Source: a virus. Taken from it: 40,339 nt of DNA. This document shows, one piece after another, positions 1 through 20,395 of this stretch. The notes under the pieces are model-generated. The model made no database searches. It worked only from the letters and a program-made list of their open reading frames with translations, and had not been told where the DNA came from. The DNA lies in UHGV virus genome UHGV-0008619, one strand, 5' to 3'. Positions within the stretch are counted from its first letter, which is position 1, and the number at the start of each line of letters is the position of its first letter. Made by a program: the position numbers and the translations under genes.

Positions 1-306
1 CTGGCGCTGGAAAACAAGGAATTAGCGCCAAAAGCGGCTGTCTGTGATGCGATTGTAAGAAACGAACAGCATCGCAACGCGACACAGGTTGCCAAGCCTT
101 TGGGTATGACTGCTACGCAACTCAACAAAAAACTTGAACAGGTCGACGTCTACGATACGCGGATTAAGCGAGGCGGTCGTATGTTCAAGCAGTGGTTCGT
201 AGACAAAGGCTACGGAGTGGTAAAATGTTCGGCTGAAGGTTACGTCCAATCACTATTTACTGCTAAGGGTCAGATTTGGGTGTCTGAACTTTTTGCGTGT
301 AAGTAG
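1..306 (+). CDS. 5'-truncated small protein with HTH-like segment (possible early regulator)
   Basis: Reading frame of ORF 100..306 stays open back to base 1 with no stop; segment ATQVAKPLGMTATQLNKKL looks helix-turn-helix-like; lies at head of + strand early block. Confidence 0.35.
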   Translation: MALENKELAPKAAVCDAIVRNEQHRNATQVAKPLGMTATQLNKKLEQVDVYDTRIKRGGRMFKQWFVDKGYGVVKCSAEGYVQSLFTAKGQIWVSELFACK

Positions 307-339
307 GTATACATTTTGTTAACTGGAGGGATTAACATT

Positions 340-1470
340 ATGTCGCAAAGAAAAATCAGCGATGAGCAATTGATCGCTGAATACAACAACGGTTTAACGT
401 ACAAACAGATTGCTGAGAAGTACGGCATGTCAAAACGCAATGTCGAGCGCCTGGGCGCAAAACTGGCAAAACGCGGTTTATTATCAACACGCCGCGCGCC
501 TGGTTTTGGCGTCAATGGCGAGTCGTTGCTAGTCGATAAAAACGGCAATGTGATCATGCGCTGGATTAAAACAGCCCGTGACCGCGACGAAATGGAACAG
601 TTAATGGAAGCGGCCCGCGACGCTTTCACGGATGAAATACCACGCGCGGAGGCTGTGCCAGTGCCTGAAATTGATTTTCAAAAAAGCCTGGCACTTTACC
701 CGGTATTTGACCTGCATATCGGGGCGCTTGCTCATAAAGCAGAATGCGGTGAGAGCTACGATACTGGGATCGCTGAGCGCGTGTTAAATGACTTCTTTGA
801 CTACGCTGTTGGCGCTGCTCCGATGTCTGAAAAAGCCGTACTGCTCCTCGGTGGCGATCTGCTTCATTCTGACGGTATGGTCCCGGTGACGCCAATAAGC
901 GGGCACATTCTTGATCAAGATAGTCGCTACGCAAAACTTGTTTATGTGGCGATCCGGTCGGTCCGGCGGGCGGTAGGGAAGATGTTGCTAAATCATAAGG
1001 ATGTGGAAATCCAGGTGTTATCAGGGAATCATGATCAGTCTGGTATGATTTGGCTACGTGCGGCGCTTGCGGCTTTTTACGAAGATGAACCGCGCGTGAC
1101 GGTTGATGTGTCACCTACTATCGTCCACCACACGCAGTACGGGAAAACATTTCTTGCTTACCACCACGGGCACACTATCAAAAAACCGGAAAATTTATTG
1201 GCTGCTTGCGTATCTGACTGGCGCGATGATTTCGGCAAGTCGAAATATGTTTACGTCCATGTCGGACATTTGCACCATAAATCAGTAACAGAATCATCTA
1301 TAGGCATAGTTGAACACCACGGCACGTTAGCGGGCAAAGACGCTTATTCAACTAATGGAGGATGGAGATCGCAACGTTGCGCTGCGGTTATCCTTTACAG
1401 TCCTGATTATGGCGAAATTGGTCGCTTTGTATATAGGCCTGAAATGGTGGGGTGTCATGATGTGGGATGA
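340..1470 (+). CDS. HTH domain fused to calcineurin-like metallophosphoesterase (possible replication initiation/nuclease protein)
   Basis: GGAGGG RBS 9 nt upstream of ATG 340; N-terminal HTH (LTYKQIAEKYGMSKRNVERL); phosphoesterase-type motifs DLHIG, GGDLLHSDG, GNHD, GHLHH; directly upstream of helicase. Confidence 0.6.
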   Translation: MSQRKISDEQLIAEYNNGLTYKQIAEKYGMSKRNVERLGAKLAKRGLLSTRRAPGFGVNGESLLVDKNGNVIMRWIKTARDRDEMEQLMEAARDAFTDEIPRAEAVPVPEIDFQKSLALYPVFDLHIGALAHKAECGESYDTGIAERVLNDFFDYAVGAAPMSEKAVLLLGGDLLHSDGMVPVTPISGHILDQDSRYAKLVYVAIRSVRRAVGKMLLNHKDVEIQVLSGNHDQSGMIWLRAALAAFYEDEPRVTVDVSPTIVHHTQYGKTFLAYHHGHTIKKPENLLAACVSDWRDDFGKSKYVYVHVGHLHHKSVTESSIGIVEHHGTLAGKDAYSTNGGWRSQRCAAVILYSPDYGEIGRFVYRPEMVGCHDVG

Positions 1471-1963
1471 TTTGTTTACATATAGCGACGGCGTTCTATA
1501 TTGGTCTTGTAACCGTGCAAATAACAAAATAAAAGCAGGTAGCGTGGCTGGATGTAAACATTATCGCGGATATTGGACTGTACGCGTTAATGGTATTTGT
1601 TGCACATGGCGTCACCGCATTATCTGGGAAATGTTTAACGGCCCTATTCCTGATGGAATGGAAATAGATCACATAAATCATGTACCTGGTGACGATAGAA
1701 TCGAAAACTTAAGGATGGTGACAAGGAAGGAGAATAACAGAAACAAAACAATGCCATCAAGTAATACTAGCGGATGCGTTGGCGTTACGTGGAACAAGAA
1801 AACCAATAAATGGCGTGCGCAAATAGGTATAAGGGGGTCTGATGGGAAAAAGAAAACAATATACGTTTATTACGGTGACTCATTTGATGATGCCGTAAAA
1901 GCAAGAAAAGAAGCTGAAAGAATGTATAACTTTCATAGCAATCACGGTATTTCTTTACCCTGA
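1457..1963 (+). CDS. HNH homing endonuclease (HNH plus AP2-like DNA-binding region)
   Basis: ATG 1457 overlaps stop of upstream gene; motifs IKAGSVAGCKH, HRIIWEMFNGPIPDGMEIDHINHVPGDDRIENLR; paralogous to 35629..36135. Confidence 0.85.
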   Translation: MMWDDLFTYSDGVLYWSCNRANNKIKAGSVAGCKHYRGYWTVRVNGICCTWRHRIIWEMFNGPIPDGMEIDHINHVPGDDRIENLRMVTRKENNRNKTMPSSNTSGCVGVTWNKKTNKWRAQIGIRGSDGKKKTIYVYYGDSFDDAVKARKEAERMYNFHSNHGISLP

Positions 1964-1997
1964 ATTTTCCATTTTGTAAACCGGAGGAAATAACATA

Positions 1998-4448
1998 ATG
2001 GTAACTGAGCAAATAAACTCACTACGGCAGGAACGTGAGGCGTCAGTTATCGGCGGGCTGCTGTTAGGCGGCCTAACTCCTAACGCGCAAGATGTTCTCG
2101 CCACGCTTGATCCTGAAGTGTTCACAATCCCGCTCTATAGACGTGCGTTTGAAGTTATCCGGGCGCAAGCCAGAAACAGGAATCTTATCGACGCGTTGCT
2201 TGTTGGCGATGAGATTGGCAATGAAAATTTCGTACCTCTAATGCAAACGGCGCGTTCGTGCCCTTCTGCTGCCAACCTGAAGGGGTACGCACAGCTACTA
2301 CGTGAAGAGCACCAGCGGCGGCAGATGTTGGAACTCATCGACGATATGCGTTACAAGCTGGAAACAGGTACGCTTGAGGTCGTCAAAGAGACGATGAAGG
2401 ATTTTGATTCCCGATATTCAAAATTAAAGGTAACGAAAGACAAGATCATTCCGGTGTTGTTGCGCGATGCGGTACAGGAATATACGGATGTTTTAAGCAA
2501 GCGCATGGAATGCGGTGTTAATTCTGACAACATCAAAACAGGTATTGACCCGCTCGATGAAATGTTAGGCGGCATTAACGCTACTGATTTGGTACTTCTC
2601 GCCGGACGCCCTGGGTCTGGTAAAGCGCTAAAAAACAGTGAAAAAATACTGCTTGAAAATGGAGAATGGACTACTCATGGCAAAGTTAAGGTTGGTGATG
2701 TCATCGCATCAATAGACGGCAAGCCCTCTGTTGTTACAGGTGTCTTTCCTCAAGGCGTTAGGGATATTTACGAAATTGAATTCGAAGACGGTAGAAAAAT
2801 TGATAGCGCTGATTGCCATTTGTGGGAAATAAGTAGTACGAAGTGGAACGCTCCACGTGTAGTCGATACTGTCGGACTTAATGATTTACTTAGCAAGGTA
2901 CGCTATCAAGGCCGTGTACATATCCCTGTTTTTGGTGGCGATTGCGGTATTGACAATAATATCGGCATTGATCCGTGGTTGCTTGGCGCTCTTATAGGTG
3001 ATGGTTGCTTATCACATAGTGGCGTAAGTATTAGCTGCGGTCAGGATTACATACTTAACCGCGTTAAACTTACTTGCTGCGATCTTGATGTTAAGCGAAT
3101 TGGTAGTAATCAATATGATTACCGCATTACTGCAAAAGGAAGAGGATGCAAAAACCATCTGATCGATGCGCTTGGTAAAATGGGGCTTTATGGTAAGCAT
3201 TCATGGGAAAAATTTATTCCGGATATTATTTATTCATCAAGTAAAAATATCAGGCTGGGCGTGCTCGTTGGGCTACTTGAAACTGATGGTTGGATTGAAA
3301 AAAAAGGGAGTTTGTATTATGCGTCATGTAGCAAATCGTTAACAAACGATGTGATTCGTCTTGCTAGATCACTTGGCGGGTGCGGGCACATGAGAGTAAA
3401 AAATAATGTTACTTTCTCATACAAGGGAGAAAAAAGAATTGGTAGGGATTCTTATATTGCGACGTTAAAACTTCCTGACTGGGTTTTAGCAAAAATAGAA
3501 CACCCTCGTCTAAAATCAAGATTACCAGAAAACAGGATGTATAAACACGGATTGCAAATTAAATCAGTTACGTTTAAAGGTAAGGAGGAATGCACATGTA
3601 TTATGGTTAGCCATGATAGTCACCTTTATATTACTTCTGACTATATCGTTACACATAATACATCTCTTGCATTAAAGATAGCTCAACAAGCTGCTATGCG
3701 CCCATATCCAGGCATGGAAGGTCAGCGGGTAGGCGTTTTGCTGTTTACGCTTGAAATGTCACTCGATCAGATGACTGAGCGTGCTATAGCTGGCGCTGGC
3801 AATTTATCAACTGACTGCCTGCGCAATCCGGTAAAACTTGATGATGAGGGGTGGGCGCATGTCGGCCAGGGTATGAGCGCACTTGCTAATCTTGATGTGT
3901 GGATCGTTGACGCGTCGCAGTTAACGGTTGAGGAAATACGCGCAACAACGGAACGCATGAAACAGGATCACCCAAATTTGGGTATGGTAATGATTGACTA
4001 TATCGGTTTAATGAAGCTGGCTAAAGCCGAACGTCACGATCTCGCCGTGGGGCAATTATCGTGGTCGTTAAAGATGATGGCGAAAGAATTGCGCGTACCA
4101 GTGTTGGCACTGGCGCAATTATCACGCCGAGTTGAGGAACGACCGAACAAGCGCCCTAACAATTCTGATCTTCGTGATTCTGGCAACCTTGAGCAAGATG
4201 CCGACAGGATCATCATGGTTTACCGCGATGGGTATTACGACGAACAGTCTGTTGCCCGCGAATATATGGAAATCATTGTGTCAAAAAACCGTCATGGTAA
4301 GTCTGGAACTGTTTACCAGCGGTTTGATGACAACGGTAATATCTTGCCATGCGACCAGGCTCGCGCAGCCGCCGCGTGTATTCAGTCAATGAATCATCGC
4401 ACAAGCCGTTTTAACCAACGAAACAATCAGAATAACACATCTTTTTAA
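1998..4448 (+). CDS. DnaB-like replicative helicase, intein-containing
   Basis: GGAGG RBS; Walker A GRPGSGK interrupted and resumed as TSLALKIA; downstream helicase motifs FTLEMS, DYIGLM, NRHGKSG; 816 aa because of a 345 aa insertion. Confidence 0.9.
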   Translation: MVTEQINSLRQEREASVIGGLLLGGLTPNAQDVLATLDPEVFTIPLYRRAFEVIRAQARNRNLIDALLVGDEIGNENFVPLMQTARSCPSAANLKGYAQLLREEHQRRQMLELIDDMRYKLETGTLEVVKETMKDFDSRYSKLKVTKDKIIPVLLRDAVQEYTDVLSKRMECGVNSDNIKTGIDPLDEMLGGINATDLVLLAGRPGSGKALKNSEKILLENGEWTTHGKVKVGDVIASIDGKPSVVTGVFPQGVRDIYEIEFEDGRKIDSADCHLWEISSTKWNAPRVVDTVGLNDLLSKVRYQGRVHIPVFGGDCGIDNNIGIDPWLLGALIGDGCLSHSGVSISCGQDYILNRVKLTCCDLDVKRIGSNQYDYRITAKGRGCKNHLIDALGKMGLYGKHSWEKFIPDIIYSSSKNIRLGVLVGLLETDGWIEKKGSLYYASCSKSLTNDVIRLARSLGGCGHMRVKNNVTFSYKGEKRIGRDSYIATLKLPDWVLAKIEHPRLKSRLPENRMYKHGLQIKSVTFKGKEECTCIMVSHDSHLYITSDYIVTHNTSLALKIAQQAAMRPYPGMEGQRVGVLLFTLEMSLDQMTERAIAGAGNLSTDCLRNPVKLDDEGWAHVGQGMSALANLDVWIVDASQLTVEEIRATTERMKQDHPNLGMVMIDYIGLMKLAKAERHDLAVGQLSWSLKMMAKELRVPVLALAQLSRRVEERPNKRPNNSDLRDSGNLEQDADRIIMVYRDGYYDEQSVAREYMEIIVSKNRHGKSGTVYQRFDDNGNILPCDQARAAAACIQSMNHRTSRFNQRNNQNNTSF
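2625..3659 (+). mobile_element. Intein with LAGLIDADG homing endonuclease domain inserted in helicase P-loop
   Basis: Insertion between GSGK and T of Walker A; two LAGLIDADG-type motifs (LLGALIGDGCL, LVGLLETDGWI); ends THN followed by Thr +1; starts with Ala not Cys/Ser. Confidence 0.8.
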
Positions 4449-4524
4449 TTAATCTGAGCAAACGGCTTACCGGAAAGTTTACCGCTTTCTGGTGGCTGTT
4501 ATCGCGTTTTAAACGAGGCTAAAA

Positions 4525-5082
4525 ATGAGCGCTGAAATTGAAACAAAAATTATCAATATCCTTGAACTTGATGGCATCGCAACAATGCACCAGTTACGCC
4601 AGAAAACAGGGTTATTGGCTTGGTATGATAAGGACGGAATCATGCCTGAGACAATTAAACACTTAATAAAAAACGGCATCGTCGAGCGCGTGTATACATG
4701 TTTTGGACGCCGCCGCCGCCTGCTGGGTTATCGCATTAAACAGTTATATGCTGAACGTCGTGAGCGTGTTGCGTCGTTATTTGGTGACTACAGCGTTAAA
4801 AAACGTATGCGCGACATTAGCGCTGAAACGGGAATACCGTGGAATTATCTTTCTCGTACTATGCGTTTAATGGTGATTGATGAAACGCTTTGCGTTGATC
4901 CAAATAGACACGGGGTTAATTTTTACTCACTGTTTAAACCTGGGCGATTCGGTCACGCCAATGATCTGGCGTTTGACTTTGATAGCCGCCTGAACGAATA
5001 CCGGAAAAATAATGGCTTGTTGCCGGATAAACCAGTATTTGAAATAGAAAAACTTAACGGTGAAACGGGGTTGGAATTATGA
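4525..5082 (+). CDS. hypothetical protein
   Basis: 185 aa ORF with GAGG RBS upstream of ATG 4525; no recognisable motif. Confidence 0.55.
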   Translation: MSAEIETKIINILELDGIATMHQLRQKTGLLAWYDKDGIMPETIKHLIKNGIVERVYTCFGRRRRLLGYRIKQLYAERRERVASLFGDYSVKKRMRDISAETGIPWNYLSRTMRLMVIDETLCVDPNRHGVNFYSLFKPGRFGHANDLAFDFDSRLNEYRKNNGLLPDKPVFEIEKLNGETGLEL

Positions 5083-5285
5083 GACGGGTAATATTCTATT
5101 CAGTTGAAACGTTTGTTGACAATACGCGTGTTTATTATCCGTGGGAAGTATACGACGCAATGGTTTATACACCGCCACTGATGCGGAAGTATAAACACGT
5201 AAAATTTAACCGGGTTTTTGTGCCAATGCGCGATGCACTGCGGGCGCTGCGTGGGGAATTACGAAACACAATGCGGATTGTGTAA
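5079..5285 (+). CDS. hypothetical protein
   Basis: 68 aa ORF, start overlaps stop of upstream gene (ATGA coupling). Confidence 0.45.
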   Translation: MRRVIFYSVETFVDNTRVYYPWEVYDAMVYTPPLMRKYKHVKFNRVFVPMRDALRALRGELRNTMRIV

Positions 5286-5295
5286 GGGGTAAGTC

Positions 5296-5523
5296 ATGAA
5301 CAAGGAATTAGATTTAACCGTGGAGGATTTGAGCACGATTGCGGAATACATGCGCGGCGGCGATCCTGATAAGCCTGTCACGGTTGATATAAAATATTTA
5401 AAAGGCGCTTTTATGACTTCTTCGAGATTGGTAAGTCTTGATGCAATTATAAAAGCGCGCTGGGAAAGTTGGCAGGAATATAAAGCGAAAAATAAGGCAA
5501 AAAGAAATAATGCGGCAAATTAG
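5296..5523 (+). CDS. hypothetical protein
   Basis: 75 aa ORF in compact + strand operon. Confidence 0.45.
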   Translation: MNKELDLTVEDLSTIAEYMRGGDPDKPVTVDIKYLKGAFMTSSRLVSLDAIIKARWESWQEYKAKNKAKRNNAAN

Positions 5524-5962
5524 ATTTGAAATAGTAAACGACGCCGTAAAAGAAAACGCTATCAGGCAGATAAGGGAAATCCATCCTGATGACAAAAGCC
5601 CGCTGATAATTACCATCCAGGAGAAAACACGATCACTGAGTCAAAACAGCCTTTTATGGGCGCTATTAACAGACGTTAGCGATCAGGTTAATTGGTACGG
5701 TAAAAAGCTGTCACCGGAAGACTGGAAGGCGGTATTCACTGCCGGGCTTAAGAAATATGGCGTTGTCCCTAATCTGGATAAATCAGGTTTTGTTGTGCTG
5801 GGTACGTCAACCAGCCGGATGAGTAAAGCAGAATTTAGCGAATTAATCGAACTGATCTACTCGTTCGGTGCGGAACATGGTGTTCAGTGGTCTGGCGATA
5901 CGAAGTTAAACGAGGAATTTATAAAACGCTGGGGCAATAATGGTTCGTTATTACATGGCTAA
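5510..5962 (+). CDS. ninB: NinB/Orf-family recombination protein
   Basis: Protein MRQIRFEIVNDAVKENAIRQIREIHPDD...ITIQEKTRSLSQNSLLWALLTDVS matches the lambda NinB N-terminus pattern recalled from memory. Confidence 0.8.
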   Translation: MRQIRFEIVNDAVKENAIRQIREIHPDDKSPLIITIQEKTRSLSQNSLLWALLTDVSDQVNWYGKKLSPEDWKAVFTAGLKKYGVVPNLDKSGFVVLGTSTSRMSKAEFSELIELIYSFGAEHGVQWSGDTKLNEEFIKRWGNNGSLLHG

Positions 5963-6116
5963 ACCTACAGGCATTTTATACAAGATTGATGGCGAATACG
6001 TTTACTATTTTCACAACCAGGCGCGTGATTGGCGGTTGTGTCACGCGCACTTTAAGCACGAAATAGAAAATCACCCTGAATATTTTATCAAAGTTGACAA
6101 TGTAACTGTGGCGTAA
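5940..6116 (+). CDS. small hypothetical protein (58 aa, below ORF-track cutoff)
   Basis: ATG 5940 (or 5955) to TAA 6114-6116, fills gap between ninB and next gene. Confidence 0.3.
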   Translation: MVRYYMAKPTGILYKIDGEYVYYFHNQARDWRLCHAHFKHEIENHPEYFIKVDNVTVA

Positions 6117-6130
6117 TTGAGGATAAGCAA

Positions 6131-6790
6131 ATGAATAAACTTAAAGCAATTGGCGTGATTAGCCATCGCACTAACCCTGAGTGTTACCCATCGTTTGAGG
6201 TAACAACATGCCGCACGGAATATAATTTTGGATCATGCTATTTAGTTGGTGTCCGCGCTGATACTCGCGGCACTTATTCAGTTATGGCGTCAAGCTGGAA
6301 ATTTGATAAATACGCTAATTTATCGAATAAGGATGATGACGGCATGAATAAAGAAAGTGAGATCATTGATGAATTAATCGAAGATGAGCGGCATGATTGC
6401 GATAAACCGGAAGTTACAGAATGGAAGGCAGGAGAAAAGCCGCCGTGCGGAGTGTGGCTTGATTGCATTGGATCAAGAAGCGATATAGTGATTGATGTCG
6501 TTAAGTTTTTCTACCTGGGCGATAACTGGTCTATTGCTCACAGTAAGTTAGAAACTGTTATTGAAACACCAATTGCATGGAAACAATACTCGTACCGCAT
6601 TCACATTGACCCGAAAGAAAAAGCACTGGCGGAAATTGCGTTTGCGCTGGCTACTAAGGTGATTGGTGAAGATGCGGCAAAAGAAATTAATTTTAACCGC
6701 GACAACGAATTTTCATGCGATTATCGCAACATGGCGCAAGCTATTATCGACGGATGTATCGGACACGTTGAATACACGGGGGATAAATAA
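6131..6790 (+). CDS. hypothetical protein
   Basis: 219 aa ORF, GAGGAT RBS upstream of ATG 6131. Confidence 0.55.
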   Translation: MNKLKAIGVISHRTNPECYPSFEVTTCRTEYNFGSCYLVGVRADTRGTYSVMASSWKFDKYANLSNKDDDGMNKESEIIDELIEDERHDCDKPEVTEWKAGEKPPCGVWLDCIGSRSDIVIDVVKFFYLGDNWSIAHSKLETVIETPIAWKQYSYRIHIDPKEKALAEIAFALATKVIGEDAAKEINFNRDNEFSCDYRNMAQAIIDGCIGHVEYTGDK

Positions 6791-7020
6791 TGGATAAGAT
6801 CGGGACAATTCTTCTTAGTCGCCCTGCCATCTGCCGGATGCTGGGCGGAATTAGCAGGGGGACGTTTTATTTATGGCGTAAAAAGTGGGAGGAAAACGGA
6901 ACCCCATTCCCGGCCCCGGTTGATGTATTGGGGACCGGGCGGGGCGTCATGTACCGCTATCAAGAGGTGATGCGGTTCTTTGATAAGATCGGATTAACGC
7001 CAGCCAGAGATAAGACGTAA
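6790..7020 (+). CDS. excisionase-like / AlpA-type HTH DNA-binding protein
   Basis: 76 aa, small basic HTH protein (GGISRGTFYLWRKKWEENGTPFPAPV); convergent with and overlapping 3' end of integrase. Confidence 0.6.
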   Translation: MDKIGTILLSRPAICRMLGGISRGTFYLWRKKWEENGTPFPAPVDVLGTGRGVMYRYQEVMRFFDKIGLTPARDKT

Positions 7021-8174
7021 TCCGCAAATTTATTTAACGCCTCCTTTTGTTCATCAAGATAATCATATTTGTCGTACACCGCCAGTATTCCCCTGAGTGA
7101 ATGGCCTAAGATCTTTTCCGCGATATGTACCGGAACACCTATAGCTGAAAGGTGTGTCCGGCACGTCCTGCGGAGGTCGTGACAGGACCATGATTTACCG
7201 CCCATCCTTTTACGCACGAAGATTGCGGCTACTTTTATCACTGATGCGTTTACTGGCCTGTTACCGCCGTTAATCACTGGCGGGAACACATAATCATACT
7301 CATGGGAGGCTAATACCTCCCTGAGCATTTTTATCGACAAATCTGATAATCCCCGCCTGATTTCACTTCTTGTCTTCGCCACTGCCGCCGGGACGGTCCA
7401 TACCCCGTTATCCAGGTCGAGGTGTTCCCTTCTCATTTTCTGCAACTCCCCCACCCTGCACCCAGTTAGCAATAATAGCCTTAATGCTATCTTGTTTTGA
7501 CGGTAGATCTGCGAATCATCCACCGTTCGCCAGAAATGGCCTATTTCATCGCATGATAAATAACGCTCGCCAACCGCATAATTTTCGCCAACGTCAATAA
7601 CCCTGATATTGTTTATCGCTGTACTGGTCATCAACCCGCGCCGGATAGCGCTGTTCACAACAATCTTCATTCGCTTAAGTATCAGGCCAGCCGTAACCGC
7701 GTGCCCAGCCGCAGTGATCTCGCCGAATATGTCCATCCATTGTTTCGTACTGACATCATCGGCAATATACTCACCGAATTTATCGACAACATGGCGCTTA
7801 AGCGCGCTCCTGACGTCATTATATGCAACCAGCTTAATAACGTTAGGCAGGGATAAATAGTCACTCACAATGGCGCTTATTGTTAATTTGCCACGCTCAA
7901 TATCTATCGCTTGCTTTACTGAAACAGTCGGGTTCTTCCCCTTCGCTAACAGCTCTTTGTATTCTGCCACCGCGTAGCGTGCATCTTTCAATGTCATTCT
8001 GCCGTAATCGCCGATCTTCATCCTCACGGGCTTACCGTTGAACCTGTACCGGAACTGGAAAACAATTTTCCCCTTCGGGCTTATCCTGGCAGACAAGCCA
8101 TCGCGATCTGCTATCTCGTTCGGGCCGTCATACGGCTTGTTTGCTATTGCGCGTAATTTAGTATCCGTCAGCAT
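6960..8174 (-). CDS. int: tyrosine integrase (P4-like)
   Basis: 404 aa; N-terminal arm-binding type region, C-terminal catalytic region with HDLRRT...GH..Y-type residues; strong RBS AAAGAGGTG before ATG 8174. Confidence 0.9.
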   Translation of the reverse strand: MLTDTKLRAIANKPYDGPNEIADRDGLSARISPKGKIVFQFRYRFNGKPVRMKIGDYGRMTLKDARYAVAEYKELLAKGKNPTVSVKQAIDIERGKLTISAIVSDYLSLPNVIKLVAYNDVRSALKRHVVDKFGEYIADDVSTKQWMDIFGEITAAGHAVTAGLILKRMKIVVNSAIRRGLMTSTAINNIRVIDVGENYAVGERYLSCDEIGHFWRTVDDSQIYRQNKIALRLLLLTGCRVGELQKMRREHLDLDNGVWTVPAAVAKTRSEIRRGLSDLSIKMLREVLASHEYDYVFPPVINGGNRPVNASVIKVAAIFVRKRMGGKSWSCHDLRRTCRTHLSAIGVPVHIAEKILGHSLRGILAVYDKYDYLDEQKEALNKFADYVLSLAGVNPILSKNRITS

Positions 8175-8189
8175 TATGACACCTCTTTT

Positions 8190-8211
8190 TTGGTCACGAT
8201 TTGGTACACAA
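8190..8211. repeat. 22-bp direct repeat copy 1 (TTGGTCACGATTTGGTACACAA), candidate integrase arm/att site
   Basis: 21/22 identical to copy at 8431..8452; internally a tandem of TTGGT(C/A)AC half-sites; immediately upstream of int. Confidence 0.5.
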
Positions 8212-8430
8212 TTTTATCTGAACGGATATTAACATCATCGAACGGATTAAAACACATCTGCGGAAGATTGATGTGTAACTTAGTGAATTTAAATGATATT
8301 TTTTATCATCCATCAACCAGTCTGAACGCAACTAAACACTATGAATCGTTACTGTCTGGAATGATTATCACTGTGAATAATCATTTATAAAACAGTGTGT
8401 TGCATTGATTTTGTTTTTGGTTTTGGATAT

Positions 8431-8452
8431 TTGGTCACAATTTGGTACACAA
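8431..8452. repeat. 22-bp direct repeat copy 2 (TTGGTCACAATTTGGTACACAA)
   Basis: Direct repeat of 8190..8211, 241 bp away in same intergenic region. Confidence 0.5.
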
Positions 8453-8479
8453 AAAGAAACGAGGCGTTAGCCTCGTTTC
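8449..8479 (-). terminator. rho-independent terminator after tail fibre gene
   Basis: Hairpin AAACGAGGC-GTTA-GCCTCGTTT followed on - strand by T-run (CTTTTTGTG). Confidence 0.6.
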
Positions 8480-8508
8480 GCGCGGCGATGTTCTTCGCAC
8501 ATCACCTA

Positions 8509-9861
8509 TTATTTTTCGCTTCCGGTCAACTGACTGACAAGCGCTTCAAGTTTTGCGATCCTCTCATCCATTGCGGCAATGTTGTCGCGCAGGCTTGCGT
8601 TCTCCTCTTCCAGTTCGGTGACGCGGTTATCTGTTTCGCGTGCCACCTGGACAAGTAAACCAGTCACCGCCGCATAGTCAACATTGAGGTAACGAGTTTC
8701 CTCGCGTAGCTCGTTGCCGTCAATGGTCGGGCCTTGCAATGCTTTACCGTAATGAGTAAACGATCCTACAGCCTCCGGCAGCGCCTCCATGACCTCCTGA
8801 GCGATAACGCCAGCGTAAGGCAGGCCGTTTTCCTTAAGGGTATAAGTGTACCCGTTCATTTTACGGACGGCTTCAGTTGCATCACCTATAACCTGAATGT
8901 TGTCTTTCAGGTCGCGGTCAGATGATTGGTTGATTGTAGTACAATTTACCACTCCGTTAACAGCTAATAGCACCGTTTCATCACTATTAACCTGACACTG
9001 ATATAGTAGTTTGTGAGTTGTTTCCGTGCCAACTACTAATGTTTTAAATTCGAGAGCTGAAGGTGAGGACTCTGAACCCCACAGCGTTATCGCGCAATCG
9101 TTAGCAGGACTATTTGCTGCCATCACCCTTATTTTTCTTGACCGATCATCAGAGTGGAAATGAGTATTAGTGGTATGCGTTTCTTTTGCATTTAAAACGC
9201 CATCAATAGCAACGTCACCGAATGTGGTAGAATCACCGGATTTTAATTGTTTTACCCATCTCGTTCCTGTTTCTGTGACATAGTTGTAACAATACAGTGA
9301 TTTGGTGGTGTGCCCAACAAAAACGCCTAAGTATGCTTTAATTCCACTACCATTATCACTTGCCTGTGCGATCCAGCCAGTTAAACACCATTCCCCTGAT
9401 GCTATTGAGGGGAAACCTGTCGCTGTATCAAGAATGCGAGTAAAGCCGACATAATTTGACGGATCGCCGGAAATGTTAGGACAATCTCTGTAAGTTTTGC
9501 CAAGACCTATCTTGTCTCCGATATGGTTCTGGCTCCATTCAAGCGCCTCCGATACTGCCGTTTCCTTACTCTGATAGTAGCGCAATGTTTCGGCTACATC
9601 CTGAGCAAGCCCATCAACTGAGATGGAATCAGATAACAGAATACTAAATTTTGTCCCGGCAGGGATGTCAGGATTAGACGATGGCGTTACTGATAATTCA
9701 GTACCGCTCTTGATTTCTGTGATGGTAAAAATCTGAATAGGATCGCTAACGGCAATGAGCGTGCACCCTTCCCGGATGAGCGAAAGCGGCGCGGTGAAGT
9801 TTGTCCCTGTGCCTGTAACAGTGTTACCGCTAATGGCTATTGTTCCTGCTGTATAAATCAT
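8509..9861 (-). CDS. tail fibre/tailspike with C-terminal intramolecular chaperone (peptidase S74-like) domain
   Basis: 450 aa; C-terminal region DRDLKDNIQVIGDATEAVRKMNGYTYTLKENG...YLNVDYAAVTGLLVQVARE plus terminal coiled coil typical of self-cleaving fibre chaperone. Confidence 0.8.
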   Translation of the reverse strand: MIYTAGTIAISGNTVTGTGTNFTAPLSLIREGCTLIAVSDPIQIFTITEIKSGTELSVTPSSNPDIPAGTKFSILLSDSISVDGLAQDVAETLRYYQSKETAVSEALEWSQNHIGDKIGLGKTYRDCPNISGDPSNYVGFTRILDTATGFPSIASGEWCLTGWIAQASDNGSGIKAYLGVFVGHTTKSLYCYNYVTETGTRWVKQLKSGDSTTFGDVAIDGVLNAKETHTTNTHFHSDDRSRKIRVMAANSPANDCAITLWGSESSPSALEFKTLVVGTETTHKLLYQCQVNSDETVLLAVNGVVNCTTINQSSDRDLKDNIQVIGDATEAVRKMNGYTYTLKENGLPYAGVIAQEVMEALPEAVGSFTHYGKALQGPTIDGNELREETRYLNVDYAAVTGLLVQVARETDNRVTELEEENASLRDNIAAMDERIAKLEALVSQLTGSEK

Positions 9862-9998: not shown

Positions 9999-10220
9999 AT
10001 GAGAATGTTTTGTGTTATTGCGGTTGCTATATTGATGCTTTCCGGGTGCGCTGAAGTTGTAAGACATGATGGATACTGCGCAACTAGTGCTTATGGTGTC
10101 TGCTATGAAAGATGGGTTAACGGGGTTAAGATTCCATCTGGTGAGATCTGCCGCGTTTATGATGGCACTGATGGCCATAGTGGGAAAACAAAAGATTGCG
10201 GTAGTAAGGAGTGGTTTTGA
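9999..10220 (+). CDS. small lipoprotein, candidate Cor/Llp-like superinfection-exclusion protein
   Basis: 73 aa; signal peptide with lipobox LSGC (MRMFCVIAVAILMLSGC); opposite strand to flanking tail genes. Confidence 0.6.
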   Translation: MRMFCVIAVAILMLSGCAEVVRHDGYCATSAYGVCYERWVNGVKIPSGEICRVYDGTDGHSGKTKDCGSKEWF

Positions 10221-11155
10221 TGGGTGCTGGTATTTATATTGCGCTACCAGATGGCAGGCCAGCTATGGAGATAACGAGCGGATTAAGAGCTTTCTCCCAT
10301 TCGGGCGATTTTAATGTTAGCTCAGCTGGATTTTCAAAAAGTTTTGGTATAACTGATTTAACTGGAGGGGATAAGTTTTTAATCCCAAAAGCTGGCGCTT
10401 ACGCTTTTGAGCTTGATAGGGGCGTAGAGACTTATTATATTTCTGGTTTTAGCGCTTCTGGTGGCACAGCCACAATATCAATAGGTGGCGAGAACGCTTA
10501 TTCCGACAGGATCACTTCGTTTAGTGGTAGTGTTTTTGAGATAGCAAGAGCTTCAAGTGGTCAGGGCATTTTTGTTGCTGATAGCACTGATTTCACGTCT
10601 TTGACCACTAACAGTACACTAATGTCGTGCTTGTTTGTCGCTAATATTAGCTTTCATGGGACTTATACCCTGCCTGTTTTGGGAGTTCCCTTTGGTTGTT
10701 GGAGCAATGACGGCGTATCTGTTGAATTTGACGGTTATAACACATTAATATGCACAAACACCAATACTTCTGATGTTGGCGACACTTACGGTAGTGTTAA
10801 TATGGATCTTGCCATATTTAGTAATTCACCGCCAACCCCCGGCGATGGTGTAACCATTATAAATCCTTACGGGCAATGCGTATTTTCTACATCACAAAGG
10901 CCGCTTGTTGTTAAGGGTTTTGTGAGTTTGACAGATACCTATCAATACATCGGTGATGCGTTTTTTCCTATACTTCGCTGCGGTTTCAACACAAGAGCTA
11001 TTTCTGCATACAAAGAATTGAGATACAAGGGGATTTCAATGTTTAATGGGCATGTTAGAGGTAACACAGGATCAAGAATTGTTAGGTATGAAATAGGTAA
11101 TAAACCGAATTTCTGTATAGGGATGCCACTGCCTTATTTACCACGAATTTACTAG
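10220..11155 (+). CDS. hypothetical Gly/Ser/Thr-rich protein, translationally coupled to lipoprotein
   Basis: ATG 10220 overlaps lipoprotein stop (TGATG); AAGGAG RBS; 311 aa, low charge, beta-rich composition, no signal peptide. Confidence 0.55.
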   Translation: MGAGIYIALPDGRPAMEITSGLRAFSHSGDFNVSSAGFSKSFGITDLTGGDKFLIPKAGAYAFELDRGVETYYISGFSASGGTATISIGGENAYSDRITSFSGSVFEIARASSGQGIFVADSTDFTSLTTNSTLMSCLFVANISFHGTYTLPVLGVPFGCWSNDGVSVEFDGYNTLICTNTNTSDVGDTYGSVNMDLAIFSNSPPTPGDGVTIINPYGQCVFSTSQRPLVVKGFVSLTDTYQYIGDAFFPILRCGFNTRAISAYKELRYKGISMFNGHVRGNTGSRIVRYEIGNKPNFCIGMPLPYLPRIY

Positions 11156-19348: not shown

Positions 19349-19462
19349 GGCGGGCATGAAGGGCGATAAATCCACCTGGCGGGAGAACTGGAATATTTGG
19401 TTGGTGATTTTTGTGAGGGTATATATCTCGCGGAATGGTCGGATATAAAAATGGGTGTGATT

Positions 19463-20395
19463 ATGGCGCGAAAAATGACACATGAAGAACATATTGCAGA
19501 TATAGCAAATGTCAATCCGCGTGTTGATATTTTAGGAGAAATTACAGGCTGCAATGATAAGGTGTTGTGTCGTTGCAGAGTTTGTAACCACGAATGGCGT
19601 ACTACGCCGCACAGCCTTAAGACTGGCAGGGGCTGCCCCGAATGTAAAAGAACAAAGATAGCACGAATAAAACAACTATCACATAACGATCATGTCGCTG
19701 CAATTGCTAATGTTAATCCATTTGTTGAAGTGCTAGAAAAAATTGTTAATGTAAAGAAAAAGATCACATGTCGTTGTAATAATTGCAAAAACATATGGAT
19801 GACTACGCCAAATGATCTCAAAAACGGTCACGGCTGTCCGAAATGCTCTGGCGTAGCGAAGCTGTCACATGAAGAGCAGATTGCAGCTATTGCGAAAGTT
19901 AACCAAAATGTTGAGGTAATAGGTAATATCGTTAATGACAAAACAAAAGTATCATGCTGCTGCAAGGTTTGTGGTCATGTGTGGTCGGCTACGCCTAACG
20001 ACCTTAAAAATGGGCGCGGCTGTCCGAAATGCGCGAAACGCGGGTTTTTATCCCACGATCACGGAAAACTTTACATCATGGTTGATGATCTGGAGGTGCC
20101 AACAATGATGAAAATCGGCGTGAGCGTTAAGGAGAACGAGCGAAGAAATAAAGTATTAAAAAGCGCACATAAAGCAGGTGTCAGAATCCCTGATTTGTAT
20201 GTCGCGAAAACGTGGGTGGGGCCAACTGAAAAAGTACAAGAATTAGAAAGCACGATGCATAAGGCTTTTAGCAATTATAAAATTAACTTTCCTGTAAAAT
20301 TTGATGGGAGTAATGAATTTTTCTACTACAGGCCGGAAGTATTCAGCATGGTAGAAAGTACATACAGTGATATTGTAAATAAAAATGCGGCATGA
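19463..20395 (+). CDS. protein with three tandem zinc-ribbon repeats and C-terminal T5orf172/GIY-YIG-like domain
   Basis: Three ~58 aa repeats each with C-x2-C ... GxGCPxC; C-terminal KLYIMVDD...KIGVS...ERRNKVL resembles T5orf172; start 19463 or 19451 (track start is TTG 19397). Confidence 0.6.
   Translation: MARKMTHEEHIADIANVNPRVDILGEITGCNDKVLCRCRVCNHEWRTTPHSLKTGRGCPECKRTKIARIKQLSHNDHVAAIANVNPFVEVLEKIVNVKKKITCRCNNCKNIWMTTPNDLKNGHGCPKCSGVAKLSHEEQIAAIAKVNQNVEVIGNIVNDKTKVSCCCKVCGHVWSATPNDLKNGRGCPKCAKRGFLSHDHGKLYIMVDDLEVPTMMKIGVSVKENERRNKVLKSAHKAGVRIPDLYVAKTWVGPTEKVQELESTMHKAFSNYKINFPVKFDGSNEFFYYRPEVFSMVESTYSDIVNKNAA

Follow-up and report, generated by a model that had tools for sequence, protein, structure and literature searches.

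What is encoded by a phage gene that joins a helix-turn-helix (HTH) to a metallophosphoesterase (MPE) ahead of a replicative helicase, and does it stand in the position of a replication initiator? The gene lies in the virus genome UHGV-0008619, analysed here as one stretch of 40,339 nucleotides (nt), referred to as the window. It was read from an uninterrupted open reading frame (ORF) on the forward strand at 316–1470 (program-made ORF list). A sequence-only reading had described an HTH fused to a calcineurin-like phosphoesterase at the replication-initiator position, and had offered a nuclease-type initiator or a regulatory phosphatase. The architecture was correctly read from the raw sequence, and the inference from position was wrong. 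The HTH-MPE protein is not the replication initiator; an O-like protein with its own iterons fills that role. The gene is an ordinary new member of a catalogued and widely annotated phage family, PHROG 704, that is without experimental characterisation. We consider it about an even call that the product is a stand-alone, HTH-tethered DNA nuclease in the style of SbcD/Mre11, serving phage replication and recombination. The nearest phages form the temperate, Nus-dependent mEp group, with DNA identities of 94.7% to mEp515 and 92% to mEp021. The features of the locus are listed below.

325–330, + strand: ribosome-binding site GGAGGG (sequence reading; homologue starts)
340–1470, + strand: HTH-MPE coding sequence, 376 amino acids (aa) (ORF list; full-length phrog_704 match; mEp homologues)
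340–495, + strand: N-terminal HTH domain, aa 1–52, helices 8–16, 21–28 and 32–44 (sub-threshold Pfam matches, relatives, AF2 model)
496–675, + strand: family-specific beta-hairpin (aa 58–78), helix (aa 79–95) and linker (AF2 model; conservation)
676–1449, + strand: MPE (calcineurin-like) catalytic domain, aa 113–370
709–723, + strand: MPE motif I, D124-L-H126-I-G128 (D124 and H126 kept in 146/147 representatives)
850–876, + strand: MPE motif II, G-G-D173-L-L-H176-S-D178-G, aa 171–179 (D173 in 147/147, H176 in 143/147)
877–930, + strand: family-specific loop after motif II, MVPVTPISGHILDQDSRY, aa 180–197 (conservation in the 147 representatives)
1024–1035, + strand: MPE motif III, G229-N230-H231-D232 (N230 and H231 in 146/147)
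1162–1173, + strand: MPE motif IV, H275-H276-G277-H278 (H276 in 146/147; residue 278: H in 126, D in 21)
1264–1278, + strand: MPE motif V, G309-H310-L-H312-H313 (H312 in 147/147, H310 in 140/147)
1444–1954, + strand: HNH_3+AP2 homing-endonuclease cassette, gene 1457–1963 (Pfam HNH_3, 1.4e-21; comparison with mEp013)

The C-terminal domain contains all five canonical MPE motifs in the expected order (DxH, GDxx[DH], GNH[DE], H, GHxH). Three of them, GGDLLHSDG (aa 171–179), GNHD (aa 229–232) and GHLHH (aa 309–313), had been picked out in the sequence-only reading and are confirmed. The other two, D-L-H-I-G (aa 124–128) and HHGH (aa 275–278), are additional to it. Conservation was counted in 147 aligned representatives of 50%-identity clusters that are 30–57% identical to the query, and each metal-ligand position is kept in 140–147 of the 147, so the motifs are no chance occurrence. 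The active site appears to be under strict purifying selection, and the protein is therefore predicted to be an enzyme rather than a degenerate scaffold.

The AF2 model, built with 24 homologues as input (mean pLDDT 74.7, pTM 0.66), has the MPE beta-sandwich fold. All 50 among the Foldseek matches listed are MPE-fold proteins, and the best is the M. jannaschii Mre11-DNA complex (4tug, E=1.4e-7). The fold-comparison figures are 13.4 for MJ0936, 13.0 each for the Pol delta B-subunit, PolD DP1 and S. aureus SbcD, 12.4 and 12.2 for Mre11, and 11.7 for E. coli SbcD. The structural similarity to the PPP Ser/Thr phosphatases is much weaker (7.7–8.2). Among 69 diverse relatives, 17 match Pfam Metallophos and 13 match Metallophos_2 at E<=0.01, and one relative (P0151) scores above the curated cut-off for Metallophos, with 25.1 vs 21.5 bits. 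The fold matches, the conserved motifs and the Pfam matches of the relatives thus agree on an HTH joined to a calcineurin-like MPE, and the profile and fold searches place the C-terminal domain in no non-phosphoesterase family.

Two further stretches of the catalytic domain are conserved and specific to the family. In the loop after motif II, T184 is kept in 146 of the representatives, D192 in 143, D194 in 137 and R196 in 142. The AF2 model has a pLDDT below 50 at aa 179–194 of this loop, and its confidence is also low in the second conserved loop (aa 331–344). Both loops probably contact the substrate or a partner.

Judged from its motifs, the domain has the style of SbcD/Mre11 and not that of the PPP phosphatases. 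The target reads FDLHIG, GDLLH, GNHD and GHLH, and E. coli SbcD reads SDWHLG, AGDVFD, GNHD and GHIH; the style held in common with Mre11/SbcD is D-x-H-L/I-G, GDLLH, GNHD and GHxH. The corresponding motifs of lambda NinI, a PPP phosphatase, are GDLHG, GDLVDRG, GNHE and GHTP. Between the two activities offered in the sequence-only reading, the nuclease is therefore favoured over the phosphatase, though not as an initiator. A regulatory protein Ser/Thr (or Tyr) phosphatase resembling NinI would have the same MPE fold. NinI is likewise a phage MPE-fold enzyme from the early-right region of a temperate coliphage, and some GenBank homologues of the target are named "serine/threonine protein phosphatase". 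However, the target differs from NinI in lacking the PPP signature GDxHG / GDxVDRG / GNHE, with GDLLHSDG and GNHD in place of the second and third elements, and nothing was detected by hhalign against NinI. We regard a protein phosphatase as extremely unlikely. All hhalign comparisons used the family profile against single-sequence templates (E. coli SbcD and lambda NinI, O and P) and gave probabilities below 3%; with such templates, they carry no weight for or against any of these relationships.

At the sequence level, hmmsearch of the diverse family profile against the PDB reaches T. maritima Mre11/SbcD at E=0.12–0.26. In the alignment, which is non-significant (E=0.12), DxHxG and GDflH of the profile correspond to DWHLG and GDLLHS of T. 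maritima Mre11. A phmmer search with the single protein and an hmmsearch with a profile of close homologues returned only HTH noise from the PDB. The histidine of motif II (GDxxH), which we take to be a typical and nuclease-relevant residue of Mre11 nucleases, is a lead rather than a test.

The target is also associated with phage replication and recombination genes, as are Mre11/SbcD proteins, and it differs from them in carrying an N-terminal HTH. It has no capping domain; the last core strand of the AF2 model ends at aa 363 of 376, and no further domain follows. No Rad50/SbcC-type ATPase is found among eight of the nine window ORFs of at least 400 aa, which were scanned and comprise the helicase and structural genes (tail fibre, J, tape measure, portal and TerL), and the ninth is an integrase by homology. 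This search covers all but about 6 kb of the phage genome, that is, the window and the upstream part of the scaffold L023 described below. No partner of this type is annotated in the neighbourhoods of relatives that were examined.

In the proposed mechanism, the protein would act as a stand-alone, divalent-metal-dependent phosphodiesterase on DNA, in the manner of SbcD/Mre11. DNA would be tethered by the HTH in place of a capping domain and a Rad50 clamp. Expression would come from the early rightward operon that also supplies the initiator and the DnaB helicase, and the enzyme would process ends, nicks or secondary structures formed in DNA while the phage replicates and recombines. In virulent relatives of the T1 type, it might in addition assist the breakdown of host DNA and nucleotide salvage, by analogy with T4 genes 46 and 47, which are required for both processes.

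The HTH is real, though weak by sequence in the target protein itself. Several Pfam families match aa 10–64 at E of about 1e-3, each below its own cut-off (Rrf2 1.6e-3, Sigma70_r4_2 2.4e-3, HTH_IclR 4.5e-3). In relatives, the matches to Sigma70_r4_2 (1.5e-9) and GerE (2.4e-8) are significant, as are those to HTH_1 and HTH_8. The three helices of the AF2 model (8–16, 21–28 and 32–44) have pLDDT values of 83–87; they are followed by a beta-hairpin with strands 58–65 and 71–78, the helix 79–95 and an alpha/beta core at 114–363. In the diverse family alignment (A2), the hairpin residues G69 and W75 each reach at least 90% conservation. Many distant homologues begin to align only at about aa 50–58. 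Nearly all relatives nonetheless have a segment N-terminal to the conserved core (median 71 aa), in which many have HTH matches, and the longer family members (430–480 aa) differ only by extra or longer HTH regions. Mean identity among representatives rises from 17% in the N-terminal region to 28% in the hairpin and helix and 39% in the MPE domain. The fastest divergence in the HTH region is the pattern expected of a putative DNA-specificity module.

The start of the gene is almost certainly ATG 340, because the GGAGGG ribosome-binding site lies 9 nt upstream of it and 21 of 23 aligned homologues start no more than one residue away from the methionine encoded there. The ORF of the sequence-only reading began at TTG 316, which is an unlikely start. 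The ORF at 316–1470 therefore holds as an open frame and not in its start. The product is 98% identical to mEp515_12 and 96.5% identical to mEp021_11.

At its 3′ end, the HTH-MPE gene is overlapped by an HNH_3+AP2 gene (1457–1963) that precedes the helicase. In mEp013, a relative without the HNH gene, similarity to the window ends at 1443 and restarts at 1955. The HNH cassette (about 1444–1954), which is of the free-standing homing-endonuclease type, was therefore inserted 15 nt ahead of the original HTH-MPE stop codon. It replaces the last codons of the gene and creates the new tail EMVGCHDVG. The displaced end, YPEFSIL*, is still readable at 1955–1978, overlapping the end of the HNH gene. 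In mEp013, the HTH-MPE gene abuts the helicase with a gap of 18 nt. The description of the gene as directly upstream of the helicase is thus correct for mEp013 and not for the window, where the HNH_3+AP2 gene intervenes.

Against phrog_704, "DNA repair exonuclease", the protein gives a full-length match with E=6.9e-143 and 477 bits (aa 4–370 against positions 2–389 of the 390-position profile). With tblastn, matches are found in 2038 of 50,697 GenBank phage records, 1955 of which cover at least 80% of the protein. The hosts include Escherichia, Klebsiella, Salmonella, Vibrio and Rhodobacter, among others. An exhaustive representative search returned 4583 50%-identity clusters at E<=1e-3. In GenBank, members are mostly labelled DNA repair exonuclease or phosphoesterase; winged HTH protein, Ser/Thr phosphatase, calcineurin-like phosphoesterase and hypothetical protein also occur. 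The phage T1 orthologue is gp16 (ST16, NC_005833 40822–41955), and copies in temperate mEp-like and virulent T1-like phages are 57–66% identical. No NCBIfam or PADLOC model matches the family, and the homologues retrieved from a viral structure library all have generic names or none. The representative-genome locus scan found a single locus, which resembles a T1-like phage contig.

Whether the gene occupies an initiator's position was examined on the metagenome scaffold L023 (53.7 kb), which is 100% identical to window positions 1–9200 and extends upstream. There, a cI-like repressor gene is followed by a gene for a 330-aa O-like protein (Pfam HTH_36, L023 6082–7074) that ends about 0.9 kb before the HTH-MPE gene. 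The O-like protein is 89% identical to mEp021_13, which matches the replication-initiation families phrog_428 (3.4e-38) and phrog_8540 (O-like, 2.9e-31). Four tandem iterons of about 22 nt (GGTAGTG[T/A]CAC...) lie inside the O-like gene at L023 6358–6447 and encode a repeated peptide. As in lambda O, the iterons are within the gene, and they are the probable replication origin of this phage. Comparable iterons are found inside the O-like genes of mEp021 (L001 4404–4514) and mEp515 (L004 4216–4256). Their sequences differ at the same place, which points to a swap of initiator and origin specificity within the mEp group.

The O-like initiator gene, the HTH-MPE gene and DnaB all point the same way in a rightward gene block. 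The slot between initiator and HTH-MPE is variable. In this phage it holds a Bro-N/ANT antirepressor-like gene whose C-terminus is encoded by window positions 1–306, in mEp021 a GIY-YIG/zinc-ribbon endonuclease gene and in mEp013 a 178-aa ORF. The ancestral order is O-like initiator, variable slot, HTH-MPE and DnaB, which puts the HTH-MPE gene in the slot of lambda P rather than that of lambda O. Neither the initiator position nor the nuclease-type initiator of the sequence-only reading survives this comparison, since a separate, iteron-bearing initiator is encoded upstream and the position of the family is not conserved. The statement that this is not the lambda O/P arrangement was right.

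The nucleotide sequence around the gene agrees with this. In a repeat search of window positions 1–5200, neither iterons nor strong palindromes were detected within the HTH-MPE gene or close to it, and no AT-rich dip that could serve as an unwinding element is present in or around it. A promoter and terminator scan of 1–5200 gave counts equal to chance expectation, and no repeated operator-like sites were found around the gene.

The neighbourhood of the gene differs between phage lineages, as listed here.

T1, LL5 and Drexlerviridae generally: HTH-MPE after a Dam methylase and small ORFs, directly before the lysis cassette
Salmonella phage ST44: HTH-MPE after a DUF3987 helicase, near primase, SNF2 helicase, a DUF3799-family protein, Erf and SSB
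Jersey-like phages: a small opposite-strand island in the tail cluster, with Sie, HTH-MPE, HNH, a hypothetical gene and an Ant-like gene
Rhodobacter phage RcJoli: HTH-MPE after holin and endolysin
Vibrio phage: HTH-MPE among lysis genes, ahead of head genes
Thermus phage Lalka27a: HTH-MPE, then nucleotidase and dNMP kinase

The location of the gene between the O-like initiator and DnaB, the slot of lambda P, in all mEp-like phages examined, together with its place after the DUF3987 helicase in ST44, would fit a second factor in replication initiation. Such a factor could be an origin-nicking nuclease. Alternatively, it could load the helicase or organise the replisome by linking DnaB to the O-like initiator, a role for which the B-subunits of archaeal and eukaryotic polymerases, likewise of MPE fold, are an analogue. 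This is very improbable. The phage has its separate O-like initiator with iterons, and there are none at the HTH-MPE gene. The only similarity to an initiator family is a generic HTH match (phrog_270, E=0.0084). With hhalign nothing was detected against lambda O or lambda P, and no Pfam or PHROG helicase-loader family matches the protein, which has no similarity to DnaC/DnaD-type loaders beyond the generic HTH. The gene is equally conserved in T1-like phages, which gave no DnaB homologue by tblastn, and in Jersey-like phages, whose copy lies inside the tail cluster. In addition, DnaB helicases of P22-type phages work without a dedicated loader.

A related idea is a helicase-associated replisome factor, proposed because of the same slot in mEp-like phages, the place after DUF3987 in ST44 and the structural likeness to DP1/B-subunits. 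In one version, an HTH-guided, site-specific nuclease would nick or trim phage DNA at defined sites and so shift replication out of the O/ori-dependent theta mode into a rolling-circle or recombination-dependent one. In the other, the protein would be the bacterial-virus counterpart of DP1/B-subunits and couple an exonuclease to the replicative helicase. Even when the two versions are taken jointly, we give the replisome factor little weight and consider it improbable.

In Drexlerviridae the family is classed as persistent, and its module with the lysis genes, in which the gene lies directly before the holin-endolysin-spanin cassette, was detected in 508 of 522 phages (PMC13164509). Lysis genes also adjoin the gene in RcJoli and in the Vibrio phage. 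These neighbours would suit a transcription factor for middle or late (lysis) genes, in which the HTH contacts RNA polymerase or phage promoters and the MPE domain is a modulator. The N-terminal domain resembles the HTHs of sigma-70 region 4, GerE, LysR and Fis, and there is a weak match to phrog_836, a late transcriptional activator. We find a transcription factor distinctly unlikely, given that no lysis genes are nearby in the phage group of the window, in ST44 or in the Jersey-like phages, that the catalytic centre and not the HTH is most strongly constrained, and that operator-like repeats and above-chance promoter or terminator signals are absent around the gene.

Other neighbours point to nucleotide metabolism. 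In Drexlerviridae without the SH3 gene, polynucleotide kinase and dNMP kinase are the commonest genes immediately downstream (PMC13164509), and the nucleotidase and dNMP kinase genes of Lalka27a are of the same kind. The enzyme could accordingly be a small-molecule phosphodiesterase that takes part in nucleotide salvage, in end-healing with polynucleotide kinase or in counter-defence, with the HTH as a regulatory or localising add-on. Candidate substrates are cyclic (oligo)nucleotides, 2′,3′-cyclic phosphates and dinucleoside polyphosphates. This reading is unlikely. Its counter-defence version is at odds with the persistence of the family across Drexlerviridae (the 508 of 522 phages), since anti-defence genes are usually accessory and variable. 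The high conservation between temperate mEp-like and virulent T1-like phages, the lack of any PADLOC match and the presumed Mre11-like histidine of motif II also count against a small-molecule substrate, and an obligatory DNA-binding HTH is hard to reconcile with a soluble enzyme of this type.

There is no universally conserved partner gene. The recurrent neighbours are homing endonucleases and genes of DNA or nucleotide metabolism, and beyond the HTH-MPE gene, the HNH gene and the C-terminus of Ant, the window shares nothing with T1 or Jersey-like phages. That homing endonucleases repeatedly flank the HTH-MPE gene is presumably typical of conserved, important genes. The Ant-like C-terminus at window positions 1–306 is 52–53% identical to the Ant-like gene in the island of virulent Jersey-like phages. 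The complete Bro-N/ANT antirepressor-like gene encodes 247 aa in the matching scaffold. Besides window positions 1–306, the stretches concerned are L024 1–744, L003 8315–8593 and L013 6885–7163. In phages that are not related to each other, the HTH-MPE gene may move together with the same mobile DNA-binding genes or draw them in.

For the HTH-tethered DNA nuclease, the persistence of the family and its presence in replication and recombination modules, with the order O, HTH-MPE and DnaB in all mEp-like phages examined, argue in favour, as they suggest a core gene of phage DNA metabolism. Several observations weigh on the other side. The target protein itself has no match to Pfam Metallophos, the link to Mre11/SbcD at the sequence level is below significance (E=0.12), and hhalign against the single sequence of E. 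coli SbcD aligned motif III alone and is uninformative. The AF2 model is moderate, with low confidence in the most conserved family-specific loops. In several lineages, lysis or tail genes, not replication genes, adjoin the gene. Resection by this protein would be superfluous in T1-like phages, which already hold exonucleases of the RecE-like or PD-(D/E)XK type. Finally, full-text literature searches found no experimental work on any family member, and the mEp021 paper does not discuss gp11. A more specific role as the resection partner of Erf was rejected, as T1-like carriers have RecE-like or DUF3799-family proteins, which are taken as resection exonucleases.

Other features of the genome lie outside the question of the HTH-MPE gene. 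The helicase gene that follows the HNH gene is interrupted by an intein.

1998–4448, + strand: DnaB-type replicative helicase with a 345-aa intein at nt 2625–3659, aa 210–554 (Pfam)

The helicase matches DnaB_C (2.5e-69), DnaB (7.5e-12), LAGLIDADG_3 and Hom_end_hint in Pfam, and its exteins match the helicases of mEp021 and mEp515, each of 471 aa. The intein splits the Walker-A P-loop (GRPGSGK|ALKN...VTHN|TSLAL), and the helicases of mEp021, mEp515 and mEp013 are intein-free. It starts with Ala, not Cys or Ser, and contains CHLW, ECTC and THN in addition to a LAGLIDADG homing endonuclease. We take it to resemble the class-3 (Trp-Cys-Thr) type. A 332-aa endonuclease (19397–20395, + strand, phrog_681, 1.1e-58) is encoded on the opposite strand within the tail cluster, beside the tape-measure gene. 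Its family is that of mEp021_12 (GIY-YIG/T5orf172 with a treble-clef zinc finger), and it is another mobile-endonuclease insertion. The integrase gene (6960–8174, − strand) is directly followed by a tail-fibre gene (8509–9861, − strand); the window therefore crosses attP of a circular or excised phage genome and is not an integrated prophage. The gene for a 314-aa membrane protein of the moron/host-takeover class (10211–11155, + strand, phrog_1265, 1.2e-87) separates the tail-fibre gene from that for the central tail fibre J and lies on the opposite strand.

For the window itself little is at stake, as the reading of an initiator derived from a phosphoesterase does not hold. The family is a different matter. 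It occurs in 2038 phage records with a strictly conserved active site, yet its label "DNA repair exonuclease" reflects remote fold similarity only, and although this is a core gene in a major phage family, it still carries no label other than this fold-based one. A functional assignment would annotate thousands of database entries, and could show how phages without a Mre11-Rad50 pair process replication intermediates.

Among known systems, the lambda O-type initiators resemble the target in having an N-terminal HTH and a gene within the replication module. They differ in that the HTH-MPE gene has no iterons and is accompanied in the same phage by a separate O-like initiator with iterons. The MJ0936/YfcE-type phosphodiesterases are single-domain proteins of 165–185 aa without a DNA-binding module, to which the target adds the HTH and the conserved loops at aa 180–197 and 331–344. 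PolD DP1 and the eukaryotic B-subunits are similar in their helical N-terminal domain ahead of the MPE, and some pipelines automatically label homologues of the target "DNA polymerase II small subunit". In the target, however, a two-strand hairpin and no complete OB domain lies between the N-terminal domain and the MPE, and these phages, as far as examined, do not encode the polymerase catalytic subunit. The intact active site is a further difference from the eukaryotic B-subunits.

The closest likeness by homology is to PHROG 704 and T1 gp16. The homology is full-length (58% identity to T1 ST16, 65% to LL5 gp69), and the architecture of HTH, hairpin and MPE and the invariant residues are common to both. 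The difference is one of setting and of the C-terminus. The T1-like gene stands before a lysis cassette, whereas the target gene belongs to a temperate mEp-like coliphage with an integrase and has the O-like initiator on one side and DnaB on the other, and its C-terminal tail has been rewritten by the HNH insertion.

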